Below, piece after piece: positions 3,741 through 23,082 of a stretch of 64,000 nucleotides of DNA. Source of the DNA: Bacteroidota bacterium. GTDB lineage: Bacteria > Bacteroidota > Bacteroidia > Palsa-948. The notes beneath the pieces are model-generated. The model saw only the letters and a list, made by a program, of their open reading frames with translations. It had not been told where the DNA came from and ran no database searches. The DNA is taken from positions 141 through 64,140 of the forward strand of contig JACRAL010000098.1 in the NCBI GenBank assembly GCA_016213435.1. Reading direction: 5' to 3'. A program made the position numbers and the translations under genes. How positions within the stretch are numbered: the first letter of the stretch is position 1; the number at the start of each line of letters is the position of its first letter.

Positions 3741-3826
3741 AACTTTAAAACACTTTCATCTCCCCTCCCTGATTAAACCTGCCATAGCTTTTAGCAATGC
3801 CATCCTGAACATGAATAACCACATCC
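3741..3826. repeat. authentic 3' end of the 522-aa ATPase gene; partner of repeat 3180-3265
   Basis: See 3180-3265. Confidence 0.6.
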
Positions 3827-5313
3827 ACCTCATGTTCTAAATCCCTGGATCCCTTATAACTTCCATCCTTAGTGGATTGAGCAATAACAATAATGCCGGT
3901 ACGAGGGTATTTTTCATGCAGCAAGTGAATATCATCCGCACTCATCCCGGCTTTGGTAATGGAATCAATGAAAACAAAATCATAGCCGGATAAATCCTCC
4001 TGAAGTGAATCGGTAAATGACAAATTCGGATGCGTTGCGCCCAGCCGGTTAATTTTTTCCTGCAAGGTGGCTCCAAAACCTTCCTCAATGGCTTCATAAA
4101 GGACTTTCCCGTGATGCTCGGCAAGATGTTTTGCAAATTCTATTGCCAGCGTGCTTTTTCCGCCTTTAGGATTGCCATATATCAGGATGCGGAAACCCAC
4201 CGCAGGATCACCGATAAGTTCTCTCCATTTTCCGTGCAGTGTCATGGTATCAAAATGAGCGTTGGCAAGTTCTTCTGAACCAAGTACCACTGTGCCGTTC
4301 AAACTGCCTCTGTGTTTAGAGCATCGTCCCGGCTTTCTGTGCGAATCGGAATACGTCCTATCAGTGCAACGGTCTAACTTTTTCCCTTTGGTATGGTAGA
4401 TAGCTCCGCAGGCAGCAAGCAATCCGTTGAGTTCTGCCTTTTCAATTTTCAATGCACCGGGTCTTGAGGTATGCAGGTAAGAAAATAGCCCTTTCTGTAC
4501 GAGCTGCAACTTGTCAAAATATTTATCATTCTCCGTTATTTTTTCTTTTTCAATAGAGGTTGTGATTTGGTCGTATAACTTTTTTACTTTTTCTTTTGTG
4601 GCTTTTCTGCCATCCATACCAACATAGCGTTTGATGTAGGCAATGGAAAGCATTGGCACTTCGCTTCCGGCAATTTCATGGAAGCGTTGCAGGGTGGACT
4701 GCTGAACGTCAAACTTTGCCTCATATTTTTTTTGCTGGATCATAGCGTTGTATGCCTTCACCAAGTTTTCCTGTATGCTCTCTATCTCCTGTGCGTAGGG
4801 AGAATCTTTTCGGATACGCCTTTCCAATATTGCTTTTTGCAGGGCATCAATGAAGCTCATAATCTGCTTATCGGTCTTCACTTTTCCGTCAAGGGCTGCA
4901 TAGCGTTTGATGAATTTAATTTCATCTTCTAACCGCTCCACAGGTTTTCCTGCCGGTGCAGTATCTTCCTCTGTGTGGGCAGGAATTTTACGAGATGCTT
5001 TAGCAGCTTGCTTTTCTCTTTTCACCGATTCTTTGGCTTCCCTTTTCGACTGAATGATTTCTTCCCTGCGCTGGGGACTTACCATTGGCTTTAAAGGTGT
5101 TTCTTTCTTGGGCTGTGTTTCAGCATACTCGTTGAGCTTTTGTAAATACAAATCAATCACTCGTTTTATCGTAGCGTTTGTATTGTATGTTTCCCAACTG
5201 CTACCATCCTGTGTAACCTTGCTGACAAGCTCATGGCTTTTCTTTAACGCTTCGGGTAAATTTTGTACACCGATGGTGTCAATGTTGCTGTAATAGTTCT
5301 GTGTGGTTATCAT
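3745..5313 (-). CDS. RecA-superfamily ATPase (RepA/DnaB-C-terminal-like, AAA_25-type) with Lys/Glu-rich N-terminal domain
   Basis: Walker A GNPKGGKSTLAIEF, Walker B DFVFIDSI, and RecA-fold layout in the C-terminal ~200 aa. Confidence 0.55.
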   Translation of the reverse strand: MITTQNYYSNIDTIGVQNLPEALKKSHELVSKVTQDGSSWETYNTNATIKRVIDLYLQKLNEYAETQPKKETPLKPMVSPQRREEIIQSKREAKESVKREKQAAKASRKIPAHTEEDTAPAGKPVERLEDEIKFIKRYAALDGKVKTDKQIMSFIDALQKAILERRIRKDSPYAQEIESIQENLVKAYNAMIQQKKYEAKFDVQQSTLQRFHEIAGSEVPMLSIAYIKRYVGMDGRKATKEKVKKLYDQITTSIEKEKITENDKYFDKLQLVQKGLFSYLHTSRPGALKIEKAELNGLLAACGAIYHTKGKKLDRCTDRTYSDSHRKPGRCSKHRGSLNGTVVLGSEELANAHFDTMTLHGKWRELIGDPAVGFRILIYGNPKGGKSTLAIEFAKHLAEHHGKVLYEAIEEGFGATLQEKINRLGATHPNLSFTDSLQEDLSGYDFVFIDSITKAGMSADDIHLLHEKYPRTGIIVIAQSTKDGSYKGSRDLEHEVDVVIHVQDGIAKSYGRFNQGGEMKVF

Positions 5314-5323
5314 TTTTTAAAGT

Positions 5324-6352
5324 TTAAAGGGTTAATAATTTCAGTTCTGTTTCAATAGCAAGAGCTTCTAATCGAAGTTCACTTTTGCTCATGGTTCCGC
5401 TTAATGAATGAGCAATTCGTTTGTTGGCAATTTTTATGTAAGCAGGTTTAAGTTCCAAACCGATAAAATTTCTGCCCAGCTTTTTAGCGACTACCGCAGT
5501 AGTGCCACTGCCCATGAACGGGTCCAACACGATTCCGTTTTTCGGGCAACCTGCTTTAATCGGTATGGTTATCAGTTCCTCCGGGAATACTGCAAAGTGA
5601 GCATCCTTAAATGGCTTGGTATTGATTTCCCAAACGGTGCGTTTGTTTCTGCCTTCAGCATTTCCGGCCACAAATGCGCTCTGCCTCGCACGAATCTTGT
5701 GTTCTCTTTTGTTGGCATTGCTTTTCCATTTACCATCGTATTCTTTTCGTCCTTTTCTCATCCGCTCCATATCATATTCGTTGCTCAAAAAATTCTCGTA
5801 TTGCTGCTCAAAGTGATACTGTTTTGACTTGGTGAAAAAAAATAAATATTCAAAGTCATTAGTAAATCTATCCCTCACACTTTCAGGCATGGCATTGGGC
5901 TTTTGCCATATAATCGTATTGCGTAATATCCAGCCCCGGTCTATCATGGCGAGAACAAAACGATATGGAATACCTATCAGGGACTTAGGGAATATCTTTG
6001 ATGCTAAAGGTTTTCCACTACTGGTAGGATAATATTTTTGTTTTACCACATTCTGAAAACCTGAACTGTTTTCGCTTTGTCCGTAACCGCAGTTGCTTCC
6101 ACCGTATGTATCACCCAAATTCACCCACACCGTTCCGGTAGTTTTCAGCACTCGTTTTACTTCATCAAAAATCAGCATGAGCTTATAGATGTACTGCTCA
6201 AATGTTTTTTCCAAACCGATTTGCCCTTTCACTCCATAATCACGCAAGCCCCAGTAAGGGGGAGAGGTTACAACACAATCTATGCTTTCGGCTTTCATGT
6301 TCTGCAATCCTTTTAAAGCATCCGTGTTATATATTTTGTTTACCTGTGTCAT
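5324..6352 (-). CDS. DNA methyltransferase, beta-class amino-MTase (N6-adenine or N4-cytosine), motif IV SPPY before motif I
   Basis: Motif IV VVTSPPYWGLRDYG near the N-terminus and motif I LDPFMGSGTTAVVA near the C-terminus. Its start codon overlaps the stop of the upstream 1715-aa gene (TAATG). Confidence 0.8.
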   Translation of the reverse strand: MTQVNKIYNTDALKGLQNMKAESIDCVVTSPPYWGLRDYGVKGQIGLEKTFEQYIYKLMLIFDEVKRVLKTTGTVWVNLGDTYGGSNCGYGQSENSSGFQNVVKQKYYPTSSGKPLASKIFPKSLIGIPYRFVLAMIDRGWILRNTIIWQKPNAMPESVRDRFTNDFEYLFFFTKSKQYHFEQQYENFLSNEYDMERMRKGRKEYDGKWKSNANKREHKIRARQSAFVAGNAEGRNKRTVWEINTKPFKDAHFAVFPEELITIPIKAGCPKNGIVLDPFMGSGTTAVVAKKLGRNFIGLELKPAYIKIANKRIAHSLSGTMSKSELRLEALAIETELKLLTL

Positions 6353-9300
6353 TATATTATTCCTTCGTCTGCAAATGAAAAATGTCCATCGGTTGTAATG
6401 ATTACATGATCTAAAACAGATATATCCATTACTTTCCCTGCCTCTTTTATTTGATGCGTAATTGCCTTGTCTTCTTCACTTGGTTTCAGGTTCCCGGAAG
6501 GGTGATTATGACAGAGGATAATAGAGCTTGCAAGCACATTGAGAGCTGCCGACATTATTAATCGCTTGTCCATAATGGTTGCATCAATGCCTCCCTCTGC
6601 TATCTTAAAATATCCCATCACATTGTTAGCTCTGTTGAGCAGCAGCATGAGCGCATGTTCCTTAACAGTTACTTGAGAACCGATTAACTGCCTGAAAATT
6701 TCAGCAGCATCTTTGGAATTAGTAATTTTTGTTTTATCACCTTTCTTTTTAGCATAGAGCATACGCACCTTTGGAGGGCGCCTTAAATTTTCAGGAACTC
6801 CATAAATTTGGTCGGCTTTCATCGGATAGGGCGTAAGCTCCCCGAATCCCGCTACCTGTGCATACTCGTTTAGGTCGAGCAGTTCAAGTTCGATTTCCAA
6901 TGCAGCAGCTTCCAATTCAAATTCGCTGACATGGGCAGACGGAGATTGTTTTATTATTTTAATTTTTGGCAGTTTTCGTATATTCTTTTTCTGAACTTCA
7001 TTTTTTATGATGTCAAACTGTGGCTGGGTAAGGGTAACGCTTGCGCTTAACTTTTCCTGAATCAGATTAACAATCTTATCAATCGTGCGAACATCAAAGG
7101 TGGCTACCATTTTATCGGCAGTTTTTTCAAAGAGGTTATTGTCCACTAAATCCAAAATATCTTCATCGAGGTAAACCTCTCCGCCCTTTTGCCTTGAAGC
7201 CGGTACAATGATTTTAAAATTGTCGCTCTGACGGATGAATGAAATACCATTGTTTGCATATATGGAGTTTCCGATAGCAATGGACTTGATGACCTTCAGG
7301 GCTTTGCCAATGGGTACAATAATTTTCCCTTTCAGGTTTTCATCGGGCTGCCAGTTGTCCGGCATGAGAATCCCCTTTTGGGTTTCTCCGGAGTTTGTTG
7401 TATAGCTTACGAGCTTGCCTTTAAAATCAGCAAACGCCTGTAAAAGATTTCCTGTGATGATGTGCCTGATTTTCCGGTCGGTAATATTTTCTTTGGTGAT
7501 AACATCCCATTGGCTTAGTAAATCTTCCCTATCAGGTTGTTCTATCGTAGTGCTGGCTCCTATGATAGCAGTGATGTCATTGGAATAGCTTGCAGGGATA
7601 GCTATGTATTTGTTGCTGCTTGCCAGTGCAAGGCGCAGCTTCATGGCGCTGGGAGCATAAGGGTTTTTCTTTTTCTTGTCAATCACAAACCCTAAGAAAA
7701 CAGACATGATTAATTCTTGTCCCCCTTCATAACTCTGTATCGGATAATTTACACGCCTTCCGCAGTAGAAAAATTTTAATACCCGAATGATATACTCTTT
7801 GCGGTTAGAAAATGTTTTTTCACTTTGGATATTTTGAGCTTCCTGTGCTGCCTTCAATTCTTTTTCACGTTCCCTTATTGTAAATTCATAAGTGGGAGAA
7901 CCTTGCAACTTTTGAATTTTCTTTTCGTTGGGAATGTTTTTTATCAGCTCTGCATATTTTTTATTGTTCTCCTGTATTTCCTGCTTCAGCTTACCGGCAA
8001 CAAATAGTTCGTATTCGGAGATAATTTCTGTTTGCTGTGTCAAATGGTCTTTGTTTTCCAATCCCTCCACAATCAGGTTTTCAAGCTCTGGTTTGGTAAA
8101 AGGTTTTTTCAGCACGTTTGCCCTGACTGTTTCCAATACGCTGTCATCCCCGAACTCGCTTTCTCCGCCCTTGCCCACTTTAATTATGTTCTGACTGATA
8201 GTTTCAGCTTCGAGGTTCATAGCTTCCACCTCCAGGTCATACTCACCGATTTGTTTCAGGTACTCTGTATAATCGGTATATCGCTCTGCTATTTCATTAT
8301 AGAAGTCCTGTTGCATCTTTGTTGAAAGAACTGCCACACGCCCGGAAACTTTGTGAGCTGCATCTTCGGTAGTATCTCCGTCCTCATTGCTTGTATCGGT
8401 TAATTTTAAAGGGTCATTCAGGATTAAATTGATTTCAGGATTTTCTTTCAGGTATTCCACGACCATTTTATCTCCGTACTTATTCAAAAAATCCGGCACG
8501 TCCAATATTTTGGTGCTTTGCTTTTGGTTAGAAGTAGTGTTAGCATCCAATGATTTCAGTTTCTTTTGTAACATCATCATTAATCGCTTCTCCGCAGGGA
8601 TAGCAGAGTTTACATAGTCATAAATTGGTTTCAGAATTTGTCCTGTGCGGTTAATCCTGCCACGTTTCTGTACTTCGGTATTGATATTCAGCTCTGCTTG
8701 CAATACAATCATTACTCTTTGCTTTACTTCACTTGCAGGAACTTTACTTGTAACAATAGCATGTGCCGATGCGCCTGTACTGCCCGATTGGTTTATCATC
8801 AGCACATCCACCTCGTTGTTGTTGAACTCACGAAACGCATCATTGGTATTGATTCTTTTCCGGGAGACGACCAATCCCTGACTATTTTTAGGATTAATCT
8901 GCACCTCAAATTTTCTTCCTGTTACTTCATTGACGGTATAACCTGCCTTCTGTATTTTATGAATGATAACATCAATCGGTGAAATAGTTATGCCACTGGA
9001 AACTGTTTTTATTTTTTCGCTTATCCGAAAGAATTCTGCCTGTGCTTCAGGAGCTAATTCAGACACTTCAAACTTTTTGTAAACCTTGCTTCCGTCCGGT
9101 GCCGTTTCAGTATATCGTAATATTCCATCTAATCCTTTCTGTAATACTTCGGTAAAATCTGTATTGATAACTGAACCGTTCTGCACAGGCAATCCGTTTG
9201 TATCTTCCATGTCCTCAATAAAACTTCCCATAGTGCTGGCAAAGGCAATGATTGGCTTTTTCCCTTCTTTCAATCTGCCAATAGCTCTCTGGGCAACCGC

Positions 9301-11499
9301 ATCCGCTTTGATGCTGAATAGCATTTGATTGATAACATTAAATACTTTGGAGAAATAAGGTTGATTGGAAACACCTGCTTCCGATGTTCCTTCACGTACA
9401 TCCACTCGTTTGCCTTCGGCAACTGCAATGCTGTCTAAATCTTCTATCTCCTCATCCACATGCTTTTTTTGAAAGCCGATAATATCCCGGAGTATATCGG
9501 TAATGTTATCGGCAATGGCTTTGTGTTCCTGCTCTTTATTGTCAAGGGTAATGTAATTGACTTCGATGCCTTCAAAAGAGCGTTCACGCCTTATCATTTG
9601 CCCTTCCTTCACTAACTGACTTGAAAGAACCTCCTGCAATGCAACGCCTCCTTTTGTAATAGCTTCCACTAATTCGTCTTTGGTCATGTTCGCATCGCTC
9701 ATAGCTGTTTTCATGGCATAGACAGGCATGTTATCGGGACGTTTGGCAAAAGTGGCGGAGAGGAATACAACGCCTTTTGTTACCGCTAATACGGACTGTA
9801 AAAATTCCCCTGTATTGCTTGAACCACTTGCATTATGGCTTTCATCCATGATAATTATGTTACCGTCTGCAATAGCTTTTAAGAAGCTCGGCTTTTCAGG
9901 TTTCCTTTCAGGGGAATTGAATTGTGAATAGGTAGCGAGTACAAATTGAAACTTAGCCGGAACTTTTTTGTCTTTGAAAATCCTGTTTTGTTCTGTGGTA
10001 GCCATCGCCTGATAAAGTATGTCGCCATTCTCATCTTTAATATCCGTTTTGCTATCTCTTGAATTGACGATAAAAGGAACAAAGTGGTTGGACCCGATTG
10101 CAGCTAAATCCCGGTAGATGTCGGAAAACAGGTTGGCTTTTTCAGTCAGAAAAATTGGTTTATGTCCCTGTAACACTCCGTAGCGGATGATGGAAGCTGC
10201 AATACGCCCTTTGCCGATACCCGTCTGATCGCCAATAATCATTCCCTGCCCTTTTGCTTCTATGTTATAGATAGCCATTGCCACCGCATCTATTTGTTCG
10301 GCAGAAAGGGATTTGCATAACTCCACGCTTGAACGGTAGCCCAAACGCTGCCTTACAAACTCATCTACATCACCGCCAACAGCTTCTTTTACCAAGCTCG
10401 TTGCTGTGTGTGTTTCAAAGTCCATCGAATCGGGAACTTGTGTATCGAGTACGACACAACTTTCGGAAGCAGGTTGATAAGGAGCATCCAAGCCACCGAG
10501 TAATTGCAGTTCTATCTCTAATGCTTCAGCTTCAATATCAACAGGTAATTTTTTCATGGTATTGTCATTTATATTTTCAATTACTCTTTCATATAAATCC
10601 TCAAAAGTTTTTACAACTACATCATGGTCTTGCTTTTTTGCAGGGGCAGCTCCCTGTGGTGTATTTTTTCTTCCCTCAATTAAAATCAGGCGTACATCAA
10701 AGGCAGTTCCTTGTCTTGAATAAAGTTTTTGTCCGTCAATATTGATAACGTCCGCCACCCAGTAGTGGCTGTACAGGTAATTGAAAAAGAGAATATTTTT
10801 TCCCGCTTGTATTCTGCCTTTCTCGTCCCAATTCGTATGACCGCCAATGATAATGGCTGCCCTGCCATCGTCTTTCATGGTGTCGAGTGTTCGTAAAGCC
10901 ATTAGATGATCCAATACTTTAATGGGATAGGTCTCGTACATCACCGGCTTATCCAATACTCCGAAAGGAGGATTGGTTATAACAGCATCGAATTTTTTCC
11001 GAAAAGAAATAAAGGGCTGTGTGGCATCCTGCTTTAATACTTTTGAAAAATTCTGTGTTTCCAAATTTCCCCTGCGGAAAGTATCTATTTCATTGACGAT
11101 TACATTTTCGGGATGAGCTGCAATGGTCAAAAGTCCGTTGCCGGCAGAGGGTTCAAATACCGAAACACCTTTATCGGCATTTACAAACACTCCTGCTAAA
11201 TATGCGATGGGCGCAGGGGTGCTGTATTGCTGCAAAAGAATACTTTGACTTGTACGATGAGAAAGATTGACTTGATTGGTGTATAAATCAACAATCTTTT
11301 TAAAACGGTCTCTGACCGTTTCAGGCAGGTGAGCGATTGCTCTTGCCCTGTGAACAATGGCAAGCTCGGTGAGTTCCTTTACTTCTGTTTTGCTCGTGAT
11401 TCCGTAGGTAGCCGCAATTTTTTCAATGGACGTTTTATTATGCTTTGTTTTAGCGAGCAATTCATTTTCTATCCTCTCTACAAACAGGAACTTGTCCAT
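6352..11499 (-). CDS. multidomain N6-adenine DNA methyltransferase (gamma-class) / SF2 helicase / RadC-like JAB domain protein; DarB-like anti-restriction candidate
   Basis: N-terminal motif I FEPSAGNGLL then motif IV ITNPPFGV. Helicase motifs IIGDQTGIGKGR (I), IIMDESH (II, DEAH-like) and QKRGRINRTGQ (VI). C-terminal ILCHNHPSGNLKPSEEDKAIT is the RadC/JAB signature. Confidence 0.8.
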   Translation of the reverse strand: MDKFLFVERIENELLAKTKHNKTSIEKIAATYGITSKTEVKELTELAIVHRARAIAHLPETVRDRFKKIVDLYTNQVNLSHRTSQSILLQQYSTPAPIAYLAGVFVNADKGVSVFEPSAGNGLLTIAAHPENVIVNEIDTFRRGNLETQNFSKVLKQDATQPFISFRKKFDAVITNPPFGVLDKPVMYETYPIKVLDHLMALRTLDTMKDDGRAAIIIGGHTNWDEKGRIQAGKNILFFNYLYSHYWVADVINIDGQKLYSRQGTAFDVRLILIEGRKNTPQGAAPAKKQDHDVVVKTFEDLYERVIENINDNTMKKLPVDIEAEALEIELQLLGGLDAPYQPASESCVVLDTQVPDSMDFETHTATSLVKEAVGGDVDEFVRQRLGYRSSVELCKSLSAEQIDAVAMAIYNIEAKGQGMIIGDQTGIGKGRIAASIIRYGVLQGHKPIFLTEKANLFSDIYRDLAAIGSNHFVPFIVNSRDSKTDIKDENGDILYQAMATTEQNRIFKDKKVPAKFQFVLATYSQFNSPERKPEKPSFLKAIADGNIIIMDESHNASGSSNTGEFLQSVLAVTKGVVFLSATFAKRPDNMPVYAMKTAMSDANMTKDELVEAITKGGVALQEVLSSQLVKEGQMIRRERSFEGIEVNYITLDNKEQEHKAIADNITDILRDIIGFQKKHVDEEIEDLDSIAVAEGKRVDVREGTSEAGVSNQPYFSKVFNVINQMLFSIKADAVAQRAIGRLKEGKKPIIAFASTMGSFIEDMEDTNGLPVQNGSVINTDFTEVLQKGLDGILRYTETAPDGSKVYKKFEVSELAPEAQAEFFRISEKIKTVSSGITISPIDVIIHKIQKAGYTVNEVTGRKFEVQINPKNSQGLVVSRKRINTNDAFREFNNNEVDVLMINQSGSTGASAHAIVTSKVPASEVKQRVMIVLQAELNINTEVQKRGRINRTGQILKPIYDYVNSAIPAEKRLMMMLQKKLKSLDANTTSNQKQSTKILDVPDFLNKYGDKMVVEYLKENPEINLILNDPLKLTDTSNEDGDTTEDAAHKVSGRVAVLSTKMQQDFYNEIAERYTDYTEYLKQIGEYDLEVEAMNLEAETISQNIIKVGKGGESEFGDDSVLETVRANVLKKPFTKPELENLIVEGLENKDHLTQQTEIISEYELFVAGKLKQEIQENNKKYAELIKNIPNEKKIQKLQGSPTYEFTIREREKELKAAQEAQNIQSEKTFSNRKEYIIRVLKFFYCGRRVNYPIQSYEGGQELIMSVFLGFVIDKKKKNPYAPSAMKLRLALASSNKYIAIPASYSNDITAIIGASTTIEQPDREDLLSQWDVITKENITDRKIRHIITGNLLQAFADFKGKLVSYTTNSGETQKGILMPDNWQPDENLKGKIIVPIGKALKVIKSIAIGNSIYANNGISFIRQSDNFKIIVPASRQKGGEVYLDEDILDLVDNNLFEKTADKMVATFDVRTIDKIVNLIQEKLSASVTLTQPQFDIIKNEVQKKNIRKLPKIKIIKQSPSAHVSEFELEAAALEIELELLDLNEYAQVAGFGELTPYPMKADQIYGVPENLRRPPKVRMLYAKKKGDKTKITNSKDAAEIFRQLIGSQVTVKEHALMLLLNRANNVMGYFKIAEGGIDATIMDKRLIMSAALNVLASSIILCHNHPSGNLKPSEEDKAITHQIKEAGKVMDISVLDHVIITTDGHFSFADEGII

Positions 11500-11514
11500 T
11501 GATTTTCATTTTTA

Positions 11515-12063
11515 TTAAATTGCAATACTGTCATTAAACAATAGGCTTATTTCCTCCTTATCCCTGTGCCTGATAAAATCCTGCGGAGTGATAAGCGGAA
11601 TGTCTTTGTAGCAATTCAGGTTCAGTGCGTTTGTATAAAACCTTGTAAATTCTGAACATATATCCCGCTTTTCGCTGCCAAGCCCGCTAAAATCAATTTT
11701 CAGTTTTTTGATAATTGCAATGCGAGGCAATAGAAAAAAATCGTACTTCGTTCCGTTGTCTCCACGTTCCAGTGCCTTGTCAATAGCTGTATTTATTTCA
11801 GCTTCGGTTTTTTGGGGAGAGAGTATGCAGAAATCCATATATCCGTTGATGCGATCACTTAAAAAATCGGGCTTCACTCCTTTACGGTTACTGTCAATTA
11901 TCATAAGTCGTTCACCAACTTTGAAAATTACTCCTGCATGATTGTAGTAAGCGGAATCAAAAAACTGTATGGCTTTTGCAAGCAGGTGTTTTCCCCTGAA
12001 CAATGCAATGTCTCCGCTATTTATATAAGGTCTTGCCTGATTGTATTTTTCTTTGATGGTCAT
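11515..12063 (-). CDS. permuted papain-fold (NlpC/P60-superfamily, YiiX/YaeF-like) hydrolase candidate
   Basis: 182 aa. INSGDIALFRG then YYNHAGVIF resembles the Cys-less-order GDIxF / H(V/A)G(I/V) layout of YiiX-type permuted papain amidases. Tentative. Confidence 0.35.
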   Translation of the reverse strand: MTIKEKYNQARPYINSGDIALFRGKHLLAKAIQFFDSAYYNHAGVIFKVGERLMIIDSNRKGVKPDFLSDRINGYMDFCILSPQKTEAEINTAIDKALERGDNGTKYDFFLLPRIAIIKKLKIDFSGLGSEKRDICSEFTRFYTNALNLNCYKDIPLITPQDFIRHRDKEEISLLFNDSIAI

Positions 12064-12080
12064 TGCTTTTATTTTATAGG

Positions 12081-13631
12081 TTATTGAACATTGGCATCTA
12101 CAAGCAGTACACCAACCAGTGTCGTTACGTTGGCATGTTTCGCCCTGTTTGCAAAACCTGTATAGACAATGGCATTGCGTAGAGCTGCTGCAAATAATGA
12201 ATTTGTACCTATGTTGGTTGTTACAATTATGGTTTGATTGAGTATCGGTGTACCTCCGTTAATGACAATGCCATGAGCATTGGCAGTGTTGCTCAGATTT
12301 TTCAACCTGCCTTTTACTTCCACAATACCACCCGACATGGTAACAACTCCTGCATCTTTTGTTATGACCACATCTCCGTTAATTCTTGCCTGTGCTGAAC
12401 TTCCGGTAACGCTGATATTTCCAACGCCTGAAATATTTCCGTAGTAATTCAGGATGCCTGAATTATTATTGATAAGCACCGCTATATCCGCATCATCCTG
12501 TAAGTCCCCATATACATTGACAATGGCAATGGAAGGAAAAATATTTTGCTGTACATGAATGGCTCCCTGCGTTAAATTACCAACGGTGCGTGTTAATTTG
12601 CCATGCACTTCCTGATAACCTCCTGCGCTCCATGTAACAATCCCACTGGCGGAATTGCTGATAATTTCTTTGGCATAGATGATATGCCTGTGCGTAGAAG
12701 ATGTGCCTGTGATAACGGTACACGCTCTGCCCTGTGCAATAATTTTATTCGCCACCACATATAAATTAGTGGTGGGGTCTGTGGACATCACGCCTTCTCC
12801 GGTTGTATTGATTATATCCCCTGCTACCTGCACATTCACTTTGCATCCACCCCCTGCAAAAATTACAGGTTGAGCAAAAGAACTGGAGGTCATAGACCTG
12901 CATTGAAAATTTATCGTACTGTTATTGAACGATACAATCAATACTGCGGAAGTAGATACCATATCCGCAAAACCTGTTACAGTATAGCTGTGTGTTCCTC
13001 CGGGGTCGTTCCAAAATCCATTTACGGTGCCGCCAAAAGGAAAATGATATGTCAATCCGTTTTTACCAAGTTGTCCGGGTTCATTATATGTTCCGGGAAA
13101 CATGACAAGGGCTTCCCCTGCCACTGCAACAACTTGTGCAGCAGTAATAGTTTTGTATTTGAACTCGGTACTGTTCTTTTTTGCGGTCAGGTCATCGCCA
13201 AAAACCGGGTCCACGTAAAGCGCATTGGTTTTTAACCGCAGGTTTACATTGGTAATTCCCCAACTGTTTCCTACCGCTACCTGATCGCCACCGGGATTAT
13301 CGGAGGTGGCATAGACAAAATCCCCGATTTCTACTTCAGCTCCATTTACCCCACCGATTTTCCCTGCCTGTATGATATAATACGCATCTCCTGTTTGTGC
13401 AGCAGGATAATTGGGATTAGCAGAAGCATCGATGCTGCCGATTATTTTCAATACTCCGGCAGGCAGAATCCCTTCGATACTGAGCGTAGAATAATCATAT
13501 TGTTTTTCATTGACCCTGATTATACGGTCAGGATTATTGAGAATCTGTGTGGACAGGGCAGCGAAGAACGCCTTGTTGTCTATGGCTTCCGGTAGGATGC
13601 CTCCTTTGGGTATCATTTGAATTGCTAACAT
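12081..13631 (-). CDS. beta-helix (pectate-lyase-like) fibre/tailspike-like protein
   Basis: 516 aa, extremely G/N/T/V/I-rich with periodic short beta-strand repeats (VNVQVAGDIINTTGEG, GNISVTGSSAQARINGDVVITKDAGVVTMSGG). Confidence 0.45.
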   Translation of the reverse strand: MLAIQMIPKGGILPEAIDNKAFFAALSTQILNNPDRIIRVNEKQYDYSTLSIEGILPAGVLKIIGSIDASANPNYPAAQTGDAYYIIQAGKIGGVNGAEVEIGDFVYATSDNPGGDQVAVGNSWGITNVNLRLKTNALYVDPVFGDDLTAKKNSTEFKYKTITAAQVVAVAGEALVMFPGTYNEPGQLGKNGLTYHFPFGGTVNGFWNDPGGTHSYTVTGFADMVSTSAVLIVSFNNSTINFQCRSMTSSSFAQPVIFAGGGCKVNVQVAGDIINTTGEGVMSTDPTTNLYVVANKIIAQGRACTVITGTSSTHRHIIYAKEIISNSASGIVTWSAGGYQEVHGKLTRTVGNLTQGAIHVQQNIFPSIAIVNVYGDLQDDADIAVLINNNSGILNYYGNISGVGNISVTGSSAQARINGDVVITKDAGVVTMSGGIVEVKGRLKNLSNTANAHGIVINGGTPILNQTIIVTTNIGTNSLFAAALRNAIVYTGFANRAKHANVTTLVGVLLVDANVQ

Positions 13632-13656
13632 GGTTGTATGTGTTTAGAATTAATAA

Positions 13657-14226
13657 TTAGAAAATGTTTTGGATTAAATACTTGATAATGAAAATGAAGG
13701 TGCCGTCTCCATTAGCCGGATTTGCTATTTGAGCGTAGAGTTCTACGCCCGCATTTTCAACAATAACTAAAGGGTTTGTGATGTTTGAGATTCCTGTACA
13801 AATCCTCGAATTAGGCGCTTGAAAAAAGAAGCTGTTGTTAAAAGCGCAAATCTGTTCTGCGGGGCTGGCTCCTGCATATTTTAAATAGGGTCCGAAGCCA
13901 CCTGTATATGGGATAGTGCCGAAGTTGTATTTCCCAATCACATCAGTTACCCTTGCATATTTCCCAACTCCAGGCGGGGGAACAACCAATTTGGGATTTG
14001 AAAACCAAGTTTGAGCATCTGCCGAAGAATGAGGGATGATAACCGTTTGGGGTGTATCGCTGCCTCCCGCAGTTTCAACATCAACGGTGCCGAGTTGAAA
14101 ATGAATGTCGTTAATGATAATCAGGTCATCTACAATGTTGGAGTGTTTTAAGGCGTGATAAAATTTATCCGTATTAACTGCTTCCATTGCAGCTCCGCCT
14201 TTTCGCTTTAGCTTAATTGTTTGCAT
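13657..14226 (-). CDS. hypothetical protein
   Basis: 189-aa ORF packed between the fibre-like and transglycosylase genes. Confidence 0.35.
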   Translation of the reverse strand: MQTIKLKRKGGAAMEAVNTDKFYHALKHSNIVDDLIIINDIHFQLGTVDVETAGGSDTPQTVIIPHSSADAQTWFSNPKLVVPPPGVGKYARVTDVIGKYNFGTIPYTGGFGPYLKYAGASPAEQICAFNNSFFFQAPNSRICTGISNITNPLVIVENAGVELYAQIANPANGDGTFIFIIKYLIQNIF

Positions 14227-14295
14227 AGGGTTAAAAATTATTCTTTAAAAATTTTATTATCTCTTTTCGTTTTGCATACGCAATTCCTGTGAGTG

Positions 14296-14964
14296 TTATG
14301 ATGAGCAATCCTCCGATGATGCCTCCTTTGTGTTGTTTGACGGTGGCAACGACTTTTTTTTTAAGGCAGCTAAAAACTCTTTCGGAATTTTCTTGTAAAC
14401 AAACTCCTTGAACTCGGCTACTGTCATGTGTCCGTCTTTATTCAGGTCAAGGGGATTTTGCTGCACAATCTTTTTAGCATAGTCCATTCCTTTCTCGCTT
14501 CCGATAATGTAATCGTCAGGTTTCCCTACCGATATGGGATAGAAGGTGTACAAATACAAATCCTCAAAACTTTTCAGCTTGCCCTTTGCGGACTGAAAAT
14601 ATTTGAACACATAGTCAAGCTGCTGCACATTGCTCATCTTGAAAAGTTCCTGTGTGGAAGTGCCAAGATTTTTAGCGGTCTTTGGCATGAACTGTATTAA
14701 GCCGGTTGCCCGGTACTTTGACCTTTCATAATCGTTGGTGCTGTCAGGTATTCCTGCGGATTTTACCTGCTTGCCATCACCATCATAACCCGGTGTACTT
14801 GCCTTTTGCTTATTGACTATCTGCGGATTGAATGTTCCCCCTGTTTCGGAGTTCATCACCGCCATAATCCAGTCGGGTTGCACACCCAGGTCGGCAGCAA
14901 TTTTTTTCAGCTTTGTGAAAAATGCCTCTGCATTGAATTTTATTTTGTCCTGAAAGAGTATCAT
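14296..14964 (-). CDS. lytic transglycosylase (SLT-domain) family protein
   Basis: Motif GLIQFMPKTAKNLG with downstream Tyr-rich segment typical of the SLT domain. Start overlaps the stop of the upstream gene. Confidence 0.6.
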   Translation of the reverse strand: MILFQDKIKFNAEAFFTKLKKIAADLGVQPDWIMAVMNSETGGTFNPQIVNKQKASTPGYDGDGKQVKSAGIPDSTNDYERSKYRATGLIQFMPKTAKNLGTSTQELFKMSNVQQLDYVFKYFQSAKGKLKSFEDLYLYTFYPISVGKPDDYIIGSEKGMDYAKKIVQQNPLDLNKDGHMTVAEFKEFVYKKIPKEFLAALKKKSLPPSNNTKEASSEDCSS

Positions 14965-15983
14965 TGGTTCACTGATTTAATAGTTACAAATTGTTTGTCC
15001 ACCCACCTTTTCGTATCGTCTATGGTTAAAAATTTCAGGAGCGTTTTATCTTTGGTTTTAAGTTCCATGATCGGAAAGCCAAGTATCATTTCACTTTCCG
15101 CCCTGCCCACTACATGAAACTTATCATCCATGATGTCTGCCGGTACATGGGTAATGATTTCCTGATGATAGTTCACATAATCCGTCCCGTTGAGGGAAGA
15201 ACTGGCATCGTCATATTGCGCTTTGGTGATGGAGAGAGCAGGATATTTCTTTTCCTTGTACTGGGCTCCGCTGATGGTCTCTACCTGCGAGGCAGCTACC
15301 CATGCGGTATAGCTGTCTTTAATAGTTCCTCCTTTTTTTAATACCTGCACTTCGATAAATAAAACTCCGCTTGGCTCTGCTTTTTCGTCAAAGGATGTTC
15401 TGCCGGTAGCTACACCTATGGCAATGCTTTTATCTACTGTGATGATAATATTGCTCCTGCCGAAAACAAGCAGCTTATCCTTTGTCGGTGAGCCGGTAGC
15501 TCTCGGGGTCTTGCGGATATTTACACTTGCTTTGGAAACTACAATCCGTCCTTTATTAGAATCAACCTTTGATTTACCCGGCTTGCCGGGAGATTTTTCA
15601 GTGAGATTGATGATGTTAAAAAACTTCTGATATTCTTCCGCAGATAAATCATCCTTTAAATCTTCCGTCAGATTGGTGTTGTATAGGTTTCTGTATGCTT
15701 TGGTAACAGCGTCCCAATCCGTGATTTCTTTTGCAGTTTCAAAAATTGTTTTCTCATCTGTTCCGGCTCCCTCCATTGCAGTTCTGAATTTTATTGCCTG
15801 TTGCGTTGAAGGATCGTCCCCTGCTTTCTTTTCCTGCTGGTTTGTCCTCCATTGGTTATAGAATTTCTTACCGCCCCATAAAAGCAATAACAAAAGTCCT
15901 CCCTTAACAGCATAATCAATGATGGTATCTTTCTTATGCTCCGGGATAAAAAACACATTGGGTTGTTTTTCTTTTACAGCCAT
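14961..15983 (-). CDS. membrane-anchored protein with annexin-like repeat (AMEGAGTDEKTIFE)
   Basis: N-terminal TM. IKFRTAMEGAGTDEKTIFETAKEIT...AVTKAYRNLYNTNLTEDLKDDLS fits the annexin endonexin fold signature GxGTDE. Confidence 0.35.
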   Translation of the reverse strand: MAVKEKQPNVFFIPEHKKDTIIDYAVKGGLLLLLLWGGKKFYNQWRTNQQEKKAGDDPSTQQAIKFRTAMEGAGTDEKTIFETAKEITDWDAVTKAYRNLYNTNLTEDLKDDLSAEEYQKFFNIINLTEKSPGKPGKSKVDSNKGRIVVSKASVNIRKTPRATGSPTKDKLLVFGRSNIIITVDKSIAIGVATGRTSFDEKAEPSGVLFIEVQVLKKGGTIKDSYTAWVAASQVETISGAQYKEKKYPALSITKAQYDDASSSLNGTDYVNYHQEIITHVPADIMDDKFHVVGRAESEMILGFPIMELKTKDKTLLKFLTIDDTKRWVDKQFVTIKSVNQ

Positions 15984-16147
15984 TTCTTAGCAGTTTGAAT
16001 GAGTCCCGGTTTTTCTTTCACCTTTTTAGCAAACAATAAAAGGTCTTCATGCGACATGGATTTTTTCAGATCAATCATTGCCTGTATTGCTTCCCTTGCT
16101 TTTTCACTCGTGGGAGCATCAATCTTTACATTGAATGTGAACTCCAT
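15974..16147 (-). CDS. small hypothetical protein (about 57 aa), not in the ORF track (below 60 aa)
   Basis: ORF MEFTFNVKIDAPTSEKAREAIQAMIDLKKSMSHEDLLLFAKKVKEKPGLIQTAKKWL fills the only gap in the gene array. Its stop overlaps the next start (ATGGCTGTAA). Confidence 0.3.
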   Translation of the reverse strand: MEFTFNVKIDAPTSEKAREAIQAMIDLKKSMSHEDLLLFAKKVKEKPGLIQTAKKWL

Positions 16148-16149
16148 TT

Positions 16150-17295
16150 TCAATTTTCTTTTTTGGTTTCTTCCGGTTTATTCTGATTGACAAATTGCAG
16201 GACTTTATCAGCCAGTTCATTGTTGAGCATCCCCGAAACAGGGTCTTGCATCATACAGTCAATCGTAAAGAGTTTTCGGAACTCATCCACTTTCACCTGC
16301 TTAAAAAATTGGATGAGGTCTTTTATCCCCTGTGCGTGTTTCGGGTCTAATCCTGCAAGATCACCGGCAGAACTACTTTCGCTGAAACTGCTATTGTCAG
16401 AAGATTTCCCATTTTCAATTTTCTTTTGCTCGCCTTCCCAAATCTTTTTTATTTCCTCATCGGTAAGCCCAAGTCCGATTTTCATTAGCTTGGGATTGTT
16501 CTTTAAAATATTTTCTCCTGCTTGCATCAGCACTCTGCCCAGTACCATTTCACCAAAGGGCTGTTCTTTTTCTTCGTTCAATCCTTCCAGATGTCCTTCG
16601 TACTCGTTTAACTCCCCTTCCATTTCCTCAATGATTTCATCCCTTTCTTTTATGGCAGCTTGCATTTCGTTGATTTCGTTTTGCTGCTGAAGTTTCAGCT
16701 CTTTGATTTCAGAGCTATGTTCCTGCGCTTTGAGCTTGGCATCAAAATCCCTTCGCATCAATTCCAGTTCATAGCTATTGGGATTGAGCGTGCTGCGTAT
16801 TTTTTCAATAGAGCTTTCAAAGTTTTCAGGGCTTCCCAGCTCGTCCAGGGTTTCCTTTGTCTCCGAAGGATTGGTAACGAGGTAAATGTCTTTGGAGTAA
16901 ACAGCACCCGATTTTTTCATTTTGCCTTTGTAGATTTCTACTTTAATGGCATCGGGGTCTCTCGATTCTAAAATCTTCGCAAGGTCTTTTATAAAAGGAT
17001 CACGCCCCGGTTTGGGGATGTAGGGTGTTTGTTCCCAACGTCCGTCTTTGCAGTAATGAGAAATTACCCCGCACTCCGGGCGGTAAACAAAAATCTTTTT
17101 CCCTTCCTTTGGGCTTTCTTCCGTAGAAACAGGTTCCGTTTTTTTCTTTTGTATTTCCTTGTTCTTCTGCTTTGCTTCCTTTTCGGATTCGTCCAGACGA
17201 ACTGCTATTTCCTCTACTTCGGGATGCTTCTTAAAAAAATCGTGTGGCTTGAATTTCATTTTTATAATTATTAGTTCGTATTTGTTGGCTGACAA
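16150..17295 (-). CDS. hypothetical Lys/Glu-rich coiled-coil protein
   Basis: 381 aa with long charged heptad-like stretches. No catalytic motif. Confidence 0.4.
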   Translation of the reverse strand: MSANKYELIIIKMKFKPHDFFKKHPEVEEIAVRLDESEKEAKQKNKEIQKKKTEPVSTEESPKEGKKIFVYRPECGVISHYCKDGRWEQTPYIPKPGRDPFIKDLAKILESRDPDAIKVEIYKGKMKKSGAVYSKDIYLVTNPSETKETLDELGSPENFESSIEKIRSTLNPNSYELELMRRDFDAKLKAQEHSSEIKELKLQQQNEINEMQAAIKERDEIIEEMEGELNEYEGHLEGLNEEKEQPFGEMVLGRVLMQAGENILKNNPKLMKIGLGLTDEEIKKIWEGEQKKIENGKSSDNSSFSESSSAGDLAGLDPKHAQGIKDLIQFFKQVKVDEFRKLFTIDCMMQDPVSGMLNNELADKVLQFVNQNKPEETKKEN

Positions 17296-17612
17296 AAAAG
17301 TTCCGGGACAACTTTCATAAACTGAATATCTATGGGTGCTGCCGGCTGACTTATTTCTATAAGCCCTGAAAATTCCTGTATGCTGTAATAAGTGAAGTCA
17401 GGAAAATTAGCTGCCTCGTTGAATATGTTGGTATCGGATGCTATCACTAAGCCCACAGGAACAGTTTTGCTTATCAGATAATAGTATTCGTTGTATGCTT
17501 CTACCATTGCTTTGCTCGCATTGATAAAAATTCTCACCGGCTCGAAATGAAATGTTTTATATCCCATTTCACTGAGGCGTTGAGTGATGTATGCTATTAA
17601 AAAGTCATCCAT
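17271..17612 (-). CDS. hypothetical protein
   Basis: 113-aa ORF. Confidence 0.35.
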   Translation of the reverse strand: MDDFLIAYITQRLSEMGYKTFHFEPVRIFINASKAMVEAYNEYYYLISKTVPVGLVIASDTNIFNEAANFPDFTYYSIQEFSGLIEISQPAAPIDIQFMKVVPELFCQPTNTN

Positions 17613-18114
17613 TGTTGATTTTGTTATCCGTTGTGTTTGTCGTGCAGTCCAAATAAATCCGAATTTTATAAGGAAATGATACTGCCGATGCTAAGTCCTC
17701 GTAATAGCCCTGTACGTATGAACCTGCTTCAATTTCTTCCTCCAGCTTCAGTGTTTCGTATTTCCTTCGGAGAAAATCCAATGGTTTTGATTCCACGATG
17801 TAATTAAGCGGTTGGGACTTTCGGTTATTGATAAACAAGCTCACTCTGCCCAGCACATAATTTTTTGCACTGCTGCCTTCCACGTTGCCGGAAAAAATAA
17901 ATCCTTTACAGCGTTTTATGTTGGCAGGGAGTTTGTATGTGATTTTCTTCACACTGCCTGAAGCAATGTTGTCAATCAGGATAAGCCCCCATTTTTTACG
18001 CTCATGCTTTTGCATCGTCCTGCCTGTTTTCAAGTCGTAAATAAATTCTCGCATTATAAGGATAGGCGGTAGCATTGCCCGCATCCTGAAAACTTCCTGA
18101 TACAGTTGAACCAT
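17605..18114 (-). CDS. hypothetical protein (true start probably the internal Met near 18015)
   Basis: 169-aa ORF. Overlaps the upstream ORF by 113 nt unless an internal start is used. Confidence 0.35.
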   Translation of the reverse strand: MVQLYQEVFRMRAMLPPILIMREFIYDLKTGRTMQKHERKKWGLILIDNIASGSVKKITYKLPANIKRCKGFIFSGNVEGSSAKNYVLGRVSLFINNRKSQPLNYIVESKPLDFLRRKYETLKLEEEIEAGSYVQGYYEDLASAVSFPYKIRIYLDCTTNTTDNKINNG

Positions 18115-18388
18115 CGGCTCGCTCCTCTATGTCATCATAGAAGCGTTTGTTAGGAGAAACTTCCTGCCCAGTTTGAATGAGTTTTACCTCAAATCCATCG
18201 GGGAATATTTCGTTGGAATCAATCTCGAATTTTGTAAAGACAGCATCTTTCAGGGCTGCTGTATCCGTGCCGGAATACTGTAACCCGGTAACTTTCTTGT
18301 ATGCTTTGTCTGTTTCCGCACTGATAGGAAAGTTTCCTGCCCCGGTTATGGTCAGCTTAATAATCTGATATTTAATTGGTCTCCGCAT
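18002..18388 (-). CDS. hypothetical protein
   Basis: 128-aa ORF. Confidence 0.35.
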   Translation of the reverse strand: MRRPIKYQIIKLTITGAGNFPISAETDKAYKKVTGLQYSGTDTAALKDAVFTKFEIDSNEIFPDGFEVKLIQTGQEVSPNKRFYDDIEERADGSTVSGSFQDAGNATAYPYNARIYLRLENRQDDAKA

Positions 18389-18463
18389 TGGCTTTATGTT
18401 AAAAGGTTAATGAACAAAACGTAGGGGCTTCTCATTTTGTGATCCACCCCTTCGTTTGTATTC

Positions 18464-19171: not shown

Positions 19172-19227
19172 TGTTTTTAGTTTTTAAGGGTTAATAATTG
19201 TTTTGGTTTTTTGATTTGATTTTTGGT

Positions 19228-19803: not shown

Positions 19804-19843
19804 TGTTATTTGATTTTTTTAGGTTAATAGATTTGTGATAGTT

Positions 19844-22381: not shown

Positions 22382-22405
22382 TTTTTTCTGAGATTAGAAA
22401 AATCG

Positions 22406-23039: not shown

Positions 23040-23082
23040 CTTTACAGTATTAATATTTTATCAATGGGAAGAAATTCCGTTT

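Follow-up and report, generated by a model that had tools for sequence, protein, structure and literature searches.

Virion-delivered anti-restriction proteins have their archetype in DarB of phage P1. In Type ISP enzymes (LlaGI/LlaBIII type) a Mrr/PD-(D/E)xK nuclease stands at the N-terminus and a TRD at the C-terminus, with the helicase and then the MTase between them. A class of "polyvalent proteins" was described by Iyer, Burroughs, Anand, de Souza and Aravind in 2017 (PMC5512222), whose relevant sections cover the MTase-SWI2/SNF2 dyad, Strawberry notch (Sno)-type versions of it, and RadC, MutS-I and Sms/RadA domains, the last two being noted in Bacteroidetes polyvalent proteins. As a trait of the dyad class these sections give an LPD36 domain at the N-terminus, made of four helices and bearing a GxG[GAS] motif; polyvalent proteins that are delivered with the virion are usually marked by a giant protein encoded beside the portal gene.

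We analysed a window of 64,000 nt from a Bacteroidota bacterium (contig JACRAL010000098.1), in which an ORF on the minus strand (6352..11499; all features given below are on this strand) runs from ATG to TAA and encodes 1715 aa. Its product unites at least two unrelated effector domains (MTase, Sno ATPase and RadC) in a mobile-element protein, as polyvalent proteins do, and its gamma-class MTase, with a TP motif and NPPF, is fused C-terminally to a SWI2/SNF2-clade ATPase, as in the dyad. The gene is supported by the ORF, Pfam matches, homologues and strong purifying selection, with a dN/dS of 0.04 over 1545 codons against the closest relative, L004, and its catalytic motifs are invariant in 10 homologues (alignment A1). 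Domain and motif support for the ORF is far beyond chance, and the three catalytic modules that the initial annotation had read in it were borne out, with all of the motifs quoted there present. We favour, with a probability of about 60%, the reading that its product is a polyvalent protein with which an integrated mobile element counters host defence, and that this protein consists of a DarB-like methylase-translocase dyad and an added RadC module.

The protein begins with a helical region (aa 1-85, 11245..11499) that occupies the position of LPD36/HsdM-N and is conserved in A1; it has no HMM match, and the GxG[GAS] motif of LPD36 is not obvious by reading. A gamma-class (EcoKI/TaqI-like) N6-adenine MTase core follows (aa ~86-310, 10570..11244), delimited by motifs and by alignment with DarB. 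Its TP motif YSTPAPI (aa 92-98, 11206-11226), motif I FEPSAGNG (aa 115-122, 11134-11157) and NPPF (aa 176-179, 10963-10974) are invariant in A1. The Eco57I profile matches this MTase at E=0.0085, under the Pfam cut-off, and orthologue P0100 passes the cut-offs of both Eco57I and N6_Mtase. The motor is a Strawberry notch (Sno/SBNO) ATPase. Lobe 1 (AAA_34, PF13872; aa 396-659, 9523..10314; E=3.4e-23, 82.5 bits against a cut-off of 27) contains Walker A GDQTGIGKGR (aa 423-432, 10204-10233) and DESH (aa 552-555, within 9832-9849), and lobe 2 (Helicase_C_4, PF13871; aa 854-1092, 8224..8940; E=8.4e-20, 72.1 bits against 30.5) contains motif VI QKRGRINRTGQ (aa 944-954, 8638-8670). A1 shows no variation at Walker A, DExH or motif VI, and Pfam also reports a ResIII match (E=2.9e-9).

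Downstream of the motor lies a Sno C-terminal region (aa 1093-1526, 6922..8223), conserved in A1 and without a match in Pfam, NCBIfam or PADLOC. An AlphaFold model (m4df5adfcb100) gives it a helical hairpin (~1152-1237) and an alpha/beta domain (~1392-1502). Between these, aa 1242-1390 form a conserved block with KKKKNPYAPS and RHIITGNLLQAF that has no resolved fold in the model, so a cryptic activity is possible there.

The C-terminal RadC/JAB domain claimed by the initial annotation (aa 1592-1713, 6361..6726) was confirmed by Pfam (PF04002, E=5.2e-37, 126.9 bits against a cut-off of 22.1), by comparison with PDB 2qlc (E=2.3e-20) and by a pLDDT of ~90. Its JAMM motif HNHPSGNLKPSEED (aa 1664-1677, 6469-6510) keeps the HxHx7Sx2D metal site intact (H1664, H1666, S1674, D1677), and the candidate conserved Glu is E1614 in VKEHALMLLLN (6634-6666). 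A full-length chromosomal RadC was rejected (NF000642, 118.3 bits against 180; TIGR00608, 96.9 against 133.85), as the NCBIfam RadC profiles matched over the JAB part alone, without the N-terminal HhH/UPF0758 part. The domain is carried by a cassette (6366..6841) in which 476 nt replace 9 nt of the 97%-identical L004/P0001, with an in-frame net gain of 468 nt (156 codons). The cassette junction, found in one other record only among 5.8 billion proteins, is common to the independent fragment P0121, and RadC is N-terminal in all RadC-bearing relatives among those compared. Furthermore, RadC is missing from 29 of 120 close homologues, from 54 of 83 species loci and from the 97%-identical sibling. 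Judged by sequence comparison, the C-terminal RadC is a rare permutation and RadC a dispensable cassette. Neither of these points figured in the initial annotation, nor did the repeated tail peptide and the conserved ~20-kb element described below.

The suggestion that the three-domain combination may be undescribed did not hold, as RadC, gamma-class MTase and Sno share one polypeptide in 91 of the 120 closest homologues (7 of these 91 also have a fused PF01555 MTase), NCBI names the homologues 'strawberry notch family protein' or 'JAB domain-containing protein', and the class is treated in PMC5512222. Polyvalent proteins of this kind, known from phages and plasmids as counters to host restriction, are common in Bacteroidota: at least 254 species genomes encode a relative, and RadC accompanies the polyvalent gene in 29 of the 83 loci sampled. 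Gain, loss, fusion and fission of RadC, beta-class MTase and MutS-I modules are evident, close relatives having RadC or not, the beta-class MTase fused or separate, and one or two MutS-I inserts, a pattern expected of arms-race proteins.

RadC is also central to the possibility that the protein is a single-chain restriction-modification-like or exclusion enzyme, a functional analogue of Type ISP or Type III systems in which RadC would act as nuclease, Sno as translocase and the MTase in self-protection, serving superinfection exclusion or attack on host DNA. In most homologues RadC holds the N-terminal place of the Type ISP nuclease, positional equivalence from which PMC5512222 infers that RadC may be a nuclease, and the union of an MTase with a helicase is the principle on which Type I and Type III systems are built. 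We consider this quite improbable, because RadC is dispensable, as its absences listed above indicate, its nuclease role is putative, and the domain order is unlike that of Type ISP. Searches against Pfam, NCBIfam, PADLOC and PDB found no nuclease domain (Mrr, PD-(D/E)xK, HNH) in the 1715-aa protein, and the confident parts of the model of aa 1093-1715, which do not include aa 1242-1390, contain none. The linker motif (aa 321-334) and the helicase region (from about aa 340-396) follow so closely on the MTase core, whose end is near aa 310, that a TRD would not fit. The protein matched 0 PADLOC families, and models of DISARM/BREX or other catalogued defence systems were unmatched. The HMM search proposed in the initial annotation supported RadC and gave domain boundaries, and detected neither nuclease nor TRD.

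We observed that each module is closed by a conserved amphipathic tail peptide. The internal copy, ELE1 (DIEAEALEIELQLL, aa 321-334, 10498..10539), lies at the MTase/helicase boundary; in pPP10, the gene is split exactly at this site and the MTase there terminates in an ELE1-type motif. The charge of ELE1 co-varies with that of the C-terminal copy, ELE2 (FELEAAALEIELELLDL, aa 1527-1543, 6871..6921), which nearly all homologues have as their very C-terminus and which is internal in the window protein, where RadC stands after it. The presence of such a peptide on every module hints at a docking partner. The relevant sections of PMC5512222 make no mention of it.

The polyvalent gene belongs to a tight operon, with gaps of 17, 15, -1 and 10 nt. 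Its TAA stop (6354-6352) overlaps the ATG (6352-6350) of a beta-class DNA MTase gene, the junction reading ATAATATAATGACACAG (TAATG), in agreement with the coupling noted in the initial annotation. This second MTase (342 aa, 5324..6352; PF01555, E=6.9e-55, 186.8 bits against a cut-off of 26.7) has SPPY (aa 30-33, 6254-6265) N-terminal to motif I FMGSGTT, near aa 280, and ends in the tail ELRLEALAIETELKLLTL (5327-5380); its SPPY motif, the basis of the assignment, suggests N4-cytosine as target. It shares 41-44% identity with the MTase domain that P0007-P0014 and P0100 carry as a fusion, and in PADLOC it matches generic Type II or orphan MTase models only. Fifteen nt upstream of the polyvalent gene is a C92/YiiX-like permuted papain-fold protein (182 aa, 11515..12063; E=1.3e-4, 22.5 bits, under the Pfam cut-off of 27), and 10 nt downstream of the beta-class MTase is a RadA/Sms-like RecA-fold ATPase (522 aa, 3745..5313).

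In 75 of 83 related loci the RadA/Sms-like ATPase comes next after the polyvalent gene. Such linkage would suit a protein that serves the element in replication, recombination or transcription and for which methylation is secondary; the Sno remodeller, the ATPase and RadC would then act in genome replication, circularisation or integration. The island has no other recognised replication protein, and PMC5512222 proposes that Sms/RadA handles incoming DNA. This role appears very doubtful, as the MTase catalytic motifs are invariant in A1 and a second MTase was recruited repeatedly, by fusion or overlap, a sign that selection acts on methylation. Moreover, the plasmid pPP10 carries the module together with dedicated Rep and ParAB genes.

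The operon is part of a ~20-kb island (3745..23700, the right-hand limit being approximate) with all genes on one strand, a GC content of 0.41-0.44 against 0.35 in the flanks, and host genes at both sides. This element is conserved among related loci. Integrases occur in those loci; neither an integrase nor att repeats were found in the window copy, which may be immobile. The best-conserved small protein of the element (235 aa, 18464..19171), encoded 7 kb upstream of the polyvalent gene, has the predicted fold of a capsid-type jelly roll and is a candidate capsid protein, and the element may be a tailless virus. SPV1, Sphaerolipoviridae, P23-77 and the PRD1 lineage were the vertical jelly-roll capsid viruses with which it was compared. 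No FtsK/HerA-type genome-packaging ATPase was found, the RadA/Sms-like protein being the only ATPase reported for the element.

Structural and lysis-type genes share the single-strand operon that the polyvalent gene ends, an arrangement that would fit a protein made late with them that marks progeny genomes before exit, as phage orphan MTases do: a producer-cell enzyme with the same processive methylation that does not travel with the DNA. The island gave no matches to genes of conjugation or of tailed phages (portal, MuF, terminase or T4SS/Tra), and tblastn of P1 proteins against the window gave no match at E<=0.1 for the partners DarA, Hdf, DdrA, DdrB and Ulx. The island therefore has no recognised packaging or transfer partner, which leaves delivery into a recipient cell unsupported. 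In addition, L004 has the same gene, TAATG junction and beta-class MTase start, apart from its lack of RadC. We nevertheless judge action confined to the producer cell unlikely, since in a true phage, BS-TP4, homologous modules occur in a giant protein beside the portal gene, and the conserved C-terminal tail peptide of each module suggests partner docking. The choice between delivery with the DNA and action in the producer cell is one that we infer.

Protection of element DNA by methylation is the most likely function. In the counter-defence reading that we favour, the Sno ATPase would track on the element's own double-stranded DNA, while the tethered TRD-less gamma-class MTase would methylate adenines with little sequence specificity. 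The overlapping beta-class MTase would add a second, site-specific mark, and the methylated genome would be refractory to restriction in the next host. RadC would be an optional accessory JAB-fold metallohydrolase, with a nucleic acid or a peptide or conjugate as putative substrate; it would come and go as a cassette and, in the window lineage, was probably inserted past the normal C-terminal tail. This reading draws on the intact invariant motifs and low dN/dS, the MTase core homologous to that of P1 DarB, the BS-TP4 MTase-Sno module, the wide occurrence of the MTase-Sno core on plasmids, the framework of PMC5512222, module shuffling, the lack of nuclease, TRD or defence-system matches in the searches above, the tight operon and the GC-shifted island amid host genes. 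The defence-evasion module of the initial annotation is thus plausible as a predicted function. Counted against the favoured reading were the MTase Pfam match under cut-off, the possible cryptic activity of aa 1242-1390, and the lack of a packaging or transfer partner and of an integrase or att repeats in the window copy.

Compared with Type ISP enzymes, the window protein likewise joins an SF2 motor and a gamma-class adenine MTase in a single polypeptide; however, the MTase precedes the helicase, and a Type ISP or IIG enzyme was rejected as neither nuclease domain nor TRD was detected. P1 DarB (YP_006479, 2255 aa) also has its MTase N-terminal to an SF2 ATPase, and the MTase cores are homologous (30% identity over 149 aa, E=3e-5 by BLASTP; E=2e-5 by hhalign), so that this part of the DarB-type layout proposed in the initial annotation stands. 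The helicase part does not, as DarB has SNF2-rel_dom and Helicase_C whereas the window protein has AAA_34 and Helicase_C_4. Similarity is confined to the MTase core (~150 aa; window aa 89-218), with none outside, DarB has no RadC, and the window lacks the DarA, Hdf, DdrA and DdrB partners. A P1 DarB orthologue was rejected given the other helicase family and the lack of full-length similarity and Dar partners.

The MTase-Sno module also occurs in gp3 of the cultured Bacteroides phage BS-TP4 (PQ571277, 5391 aa), which is encoded directly upstream of the portal gene and is 36% identical in this module over 81% of the query (aa 40-1457). In contrast to the window protein, gp3 is a giant multi-module tailed-phage protein with no ELE-type tail, and it has no match to the query's RadC region. 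Bacteroidota orthologues (such as P0120 of Flaviaesturariibacter aridisoli, P0010 and P0063; 60-73% identity) share the gamma-class MTase, Sno motor, C-terminal region and tail, and their genes have the same element context, with the same ATPase gene coming next. In these orthologues RadC, and the beta-class MTase if present, is N-terminal and the tail peptide is the end, whereas in the window RadC comes after the tail and the beta-class MTase is a separate overlapping gene. Finally, as in the class outlined in the relevant sections of PMC5512222, several effector domains share one polypeptide on a mobile element and are shuffled between relatives, a gamma-class MTase with TP...NPP(F/Y) is N-terminal to a SWI2/SNF2-clade motor, and RadC, MutS-I and Sms/RadA are found within the protein or adjoining it; the window differs from that class in having no conjugation genes, a C-terminal RadC and a tail peptide at the module ends.

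The polyvalent gene of the window (6352-11499, minus strand) starts with ATG, ends with TAA and codes for a protein of 1715 aa. Every motif quoted in the initial annotation was found in it, namely YSTPAPI (aa 92-98), FEPSAGNG (aa 115-122), NPPF (aa 176-179), GDQTGIGKGR (aa 423-432), DESH (aa 552-555), QKRGRINRTGQ (aa 944-954) and, within the RadC domain, HNHPSGNLKPSEED (aa 1664-1677). The C-terminal RadC/JAB domain proposed there was confirmed by Pfam (aa 1592-1713, E = 5.2e-37) and by a match to a solved RadC homologue (PDB 2qlc, E = 2.3e-20); in a profile search of the whole protein against PDB sequences, RadC alone was matched, and the AlphaFold model gives this domain a pLDDT of about 90. 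The motor is of the Strawberry notch (Sno) type, with AAA_34 (aa 396-659, E = 3.4e-23) and Helicase_C_4 (aa 854-1092, E = 8.4e-20) domains, and ResIII also matched the protein (E = 2.9e-9). The Eco57I methyltransferase (MTase) match at aa 145-183 was under the Pfam cut-off. The MTase assignment stands because the motifs are canonical and invariant across homologues, because the orthologue P0100 clears both the Eco57I and the N6_Mtase cut-offs, and because this part of the protein can be aligned to the P1 DarB MTase. Furthermore, comparison with the closest relative yielded a dN/dS of 0.04 over 1545 codons, indicating that the gene is functional.

The overlap with a second, beta-class MTase gene, also claimed at the outset, was verified. 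The start codon of the downstream gene (5324-6352, minus strand, 342 aa) overlaps the polyvalent stop codon in a TAATG (ATAATATAATGACACAG). Its product is a PF01555 MTase (E = 6.9e-55) in which SPPY lies N-terminal to FxGxG, hence its beta class. The SPPY motif suggests N4-cytosine as the target, the usual meaning of this motif. A promoter and terminator scan returned nothing above chance. The large protein is not a canonical Type ISP or IIG enzyme, nor does it belong to a catalogued defence system: no nuclease or TRD was matched in it, PADLOC returned no match for it, and the MTase core ends near aa 310, which leaves no room for a TRD before the helicase region starts at about aa 340-396.

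The suggestion that the three-domain combination might be undescribed did not survive comparison with relatives. We retrieved at least 1865 homologues from a large-database search and classified the best 120 (65-97% identity to the query; 'strawberry notch family protein' or 'JAB domain-containing protein' at NCBI) by motif order. Among these best 120, RadC was N-terminal in 91, with a PF01555 MTase between RadC and the gamma-MTase in 7 of the 91, was absent from 29 and was C-terminal in none. In the homologues P0010 and P0100, Pfam gave the order RadC (34-155), PF01555 (199-475), gamma-MTase, MutS_I (807-892) and Sno. When one genome per species was scanned, at least 254, essentially all of them from Bacteroidota and isolates included, proved to encode relatives. 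RadC was present within 10 kb in 29 of the 83 loci analysed, always directly upstream of the gamma-MTase or fused to its N-terminus; in the 83 loci it was never downstream. When the junction between the helicase C-terminus and RadC was used to query 5.8 billion proteins, a single other record had the same arrangement, P0121, a 337-aa fragment from another sample with 90% identity. The domain set is common, would be no surprise to a specialist, and belongs to a class already treated in PMC5512222; what is new is the uncommon, permuted order, found in a narrow lineage of two records.

The nearest relative among the best 120 of at least 1865 homologues, P0001 (97% amino-acid identity), stops 18 residues past the tail motif described below and lacks RadC, while in its locus, L004, the same beta-MTase again overlaps the stop in a TAATG. 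The DNA shows 476 nt of the window in place of 9 nt in L004, a net in-frame gain of 156 codons (468 nt). From this comparison we infer that the RadC fusion is real, recent and modular. A frameshift or assembly artefact was rejected as its origin, given the in-frame 468-nt cassette and the same junction in the independent fragment P0121. Relocation of RadC from an N-terminal position within this gene was not supported either, as the inserted domain shares a mean identity of 45% (maximum 52%) with the N-terminal RadCs of relatives and is closer to a stand-alone 179-aa RadC (54%), its best match. One alternative makes the protein an R-M-like enzyme with RadC as the nuclease; the dispensability of RadC weakens this proposal, which we consider improbable. 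The window and its 97% sibling provide a natural pair of alleles, with and without RadC and otherwise the same, from which the role of this widespread domain, whose function is disputed, could be approached cleanly.

LELEAEALALELELLAA is the C-terminal sequence of nearly all homologues, and a roughly 16-aa amphipathic peptide of the LELEAEALALELELL type is located at the end of each module or polypeptide. The window contains three copies, all on the minus strand: the first (aa 321-334, 10498-10539) follows the gamma-MTase, the second (aa 1527-1543, 6871-6921) precedes RadC and is the ancestral C-terminus, and the third, ELRLEALAIETELKLLTL, ends the beta-MTase (5327-5380) and is identical to the second at 10 of 17 positions without gaps. 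AlphaFold modelled the second copy as a low-confidence helix within a disordered linker. Beta-MTase domains fused inside relatives lack the peptide. On the Persicobacter plasmid pPP10 (locus L087), the gamma-MTase and Sno are separate genes (7980-9002 and 8999-12856) split exactly at the internal copy, and both products end in a basic tail (...RAKAIMILQKQLNL and ...RAKAILILQAQVL). In 80 complete ORFs, the tail was acidic in 72, basic in 5 and mixed in 3, the charge-swapped tails of some lineages, such as L040, L058, L074 and pPP10, carrying Lys/Arg; the hydrophobic skeleton was kept in 68 of the 80, and the internal copy tends to share its charge sign with the terminal tail. A general role as a tag on other element proteins was rejected, since no other ORF in the 83 loci bears a strict tail of this kind. 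The peptide may serve to dock module ends onto a shared binding partner, and its repetition offers a concrete, testable candidate for the recruitment of modules whether separate or fused.

The polyvalent gene resides in an island extending from 3745 to about 23700, with exclusively minus-strand genes from 3745 to about 22650 and a GC content of 0.41-0.44 vs about 0.35 in the flanks. Host genes lie on either side (ArsR, DsrE and HMBD on the left; a YqgF-like gene, def and a prolyl oligopeptidase on the right), and a search for att sites found no flanking direct repeats of at least 12 nt at the island ends. At the far end, divergent ORFs of 79 aa (22800-23039, minus strand) and 71 aa (23083-23298, plus strand) have similar helix-turn-helix-like sequences, and about 500 nt of non-coding DNA with a GC-rich hairpin follow the latter (23300-23810). 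Outside the island, a 779-aa protein (36408-38747, minus strand) combines a ThiF-family match with a nitroreductase-family match over 28 aa and may be a peptide-modification enzyme.

Next to the polyvalent gene, the island encodes a 182-aa C92-like protein (11515-12063, minus strand; under the Pfam cut-off) and a 516-aa protein (12081-13631, minus strand) without database matches, whose Gly/Asn/Thr/Val-rich repetitive sequence resembles, by eye, a right-handed beta-helix of the spike or tailspike kind. In L004, the closest relative of the island, an extra 347-aa gene (2864-3907 of L004) lies between these two; it is absent from the window. Other products are coiled-coil and small membrane proteins, an SLT-type lysozyme with matches to phage baseplate-hub and peptidase PHROGs in its C-terminal part, and a 606-aa protein with a weak transglutaminase-like match just under the Pfam cut-off. 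Immediately downstream of the beta-MTase is a 522-aa RadA/Sms-like ATPase (3745-5313, minus strand), whose C-terminal domain matches RadA (PDB 5lkm, E = 1e-6); 75 of 83 loci encode it along with the polyvalent gene, and its pPP10 counterpart is split into 309-aa and 174-aa genes. By eye, a cysteine/histidine-rich, possibly metal-binding stretch was seen at about aa 300-340 of this ATPase.

Gene order and sizes are kept in Flaviaesturariibacter aridisoli and in a Bacteroidia MAG, and the ATPase and the proteins of 606, 235 and 128 aa were found again in 34-75 of the 83 loci. Related copies of the island are present in the genomes of at least 254 Bacteroidota species; besides F. aridisoli, isolates with the element include Lacibacter sp. 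MH-610, Chitinophaga eiseniae and Persicobacter psychrovividus, where it is episomal on pPP10. A tyrosine integrase lies 1-5 kb past the ATPase in 11 of the 83, and the same module is present on the circular 53-kb replicon pPP10 (NZ_AP025302.1), which bears Rep and ParAB. Past the ATPase gene of F. aridisoli (locus L001, 16861-21107) come genes for a KAP NTPase, a DUF4365 protein and a tyrosine integrase, which may represent cargo or defence genes beside the integration module.

Searches of the island for terminase, portal, VirB4, relaxase and integrase genes found none. A conjugative element was rejected for want of VirB4, relaxase and Tra matches, as was a tailed prophage, with no terminase, portal or capsid PHROG matches and nothing beyond lysozyme-domain and weak tape-measure-like ones. 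A tentative reading, which we hold to be possible rather than probable, is that the polyvalent protein is tail-peptide-loaded cargo of undescribed, widespread, tailless jelly-roll-capsid viruses or proviruses of Bacteroidota, of about 20 kb. Such a virus would be built with a capsid protein of the SPV1/sphaerolipovirus type, a spike-like protein, peptidoglycan hydrolases and small membrane proteins, but without terminase, portal and FtsK-type ATPase; the charge-flippable tail would act as a docking signal on gamma-MTase, Sno and beta-MTase, through which the module enzymes would be loaded onto one shared partner inside the particle. The candidate capsid protein is the 235-aa product with a predicted jelly-roll fold (18464-19171, minus strand), for whose model a BFVD fold search gave weak matches only. 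It is followed by the 128-aa gene (18002-18388) and the adjoining 169-aa gene (17605-18114; 136 aa from a later start), both on the minus strand, and at least 32 loci preserve this synteny. Their products are paralogues of each other (hhalign probability 94%), show no sequence kinship with the 235-aa protein, and could be further capsid components. The 522-aa ATPase was rejected as an FtsK/HerA packaging ATPase, its C-terminal domain being RadA/Sms-like. If this reading were true, polyvalent counter-defence proteins would not be limited to tailed phages and conjugative elements, anti-restriction cargo of this kind would travel within a non-tailed virus, and a large group of Bacteroidota viruses would so far have been overlooked.

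For the protein itself, the best-supported reading, to which we assign a probability of roughly 60%, is that the Sno motor would carry a TRD-less adenine MTase along element DNA, the overlapping beta-MTase would add a second mark, and RadC would be an optional accessory. This anti-restriction role is drawn from homology and a layout common to DarB, from the occurrence of the same module in a giant protein encoded beside the portal gene of a cultured Bacteroides phage, from the wide carriage of the MTase-Sno core by plasmids, from the invariance of the catalytic motifs, and from domain shuffling between relatives, as expected for arms-race proteins. The same enzymes might instead mark the genome in the producer cell, which seems to us rather unlikely, and a replication or recombination factor is more doubtful still. 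The RadC allele pair, the module-end tail with its charge-swapped variants and the possible tailless-virus carrier are the features of moderate interest.

The layout had been annotated as DarB-type, which holds, and the MTase cores are homologous; the likeness does not extend to the motor family, to orthology or to Dar partners. P1 DarB (NC_005856) has an SNF2-rel_dom and Helicase_C motor with an N6_Mtase/Eco57I MTase, in contrast to the AAA_34 and Helicase_C_4 motor of the window protein; about 150 residues of the MTase core alone align (30% identity, E = 3e-5 by BLASTP and 2e-5 by hhalign), and no homologues of DarA, Hdf, DdrA, DdrB or Ulx were found in the window. Orthology with DarB was therefore rejected, while the layout is DarB-like and the function is probably so. 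A full-text literature search found no papers on bacterial Sno-MTase proteins beyond PMC5512222, and none giving RadC a function in this setting. That article, in which Iyer et al. (2017) defined the 'polyvalent proteins' of phages and conjugative elements, describes gamma-MTases (TP...NPP[YF]) joined to SWI2/SNF2 ATPases, DarB being the archetype, and notes Strawberry-notch versions 'in a few instances'; RadC is there reportedly confined to proteins of conjugative elements, and associated domains include MutS-I in Bacteroidetes and Firmicutes and Sms/RadA in Bacteroidetes. In its authors' proposal, restriction is pre-empted by a motor that carries the MTase along DNA entering the cell, and RadC processes nucleic acids. 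The window protein is one more member, in permuted order, of this class described by comparative genomics in 2017, and all the domains listed there were found in the window or in close relatives, including the downstream RadA/Sms-like gene.
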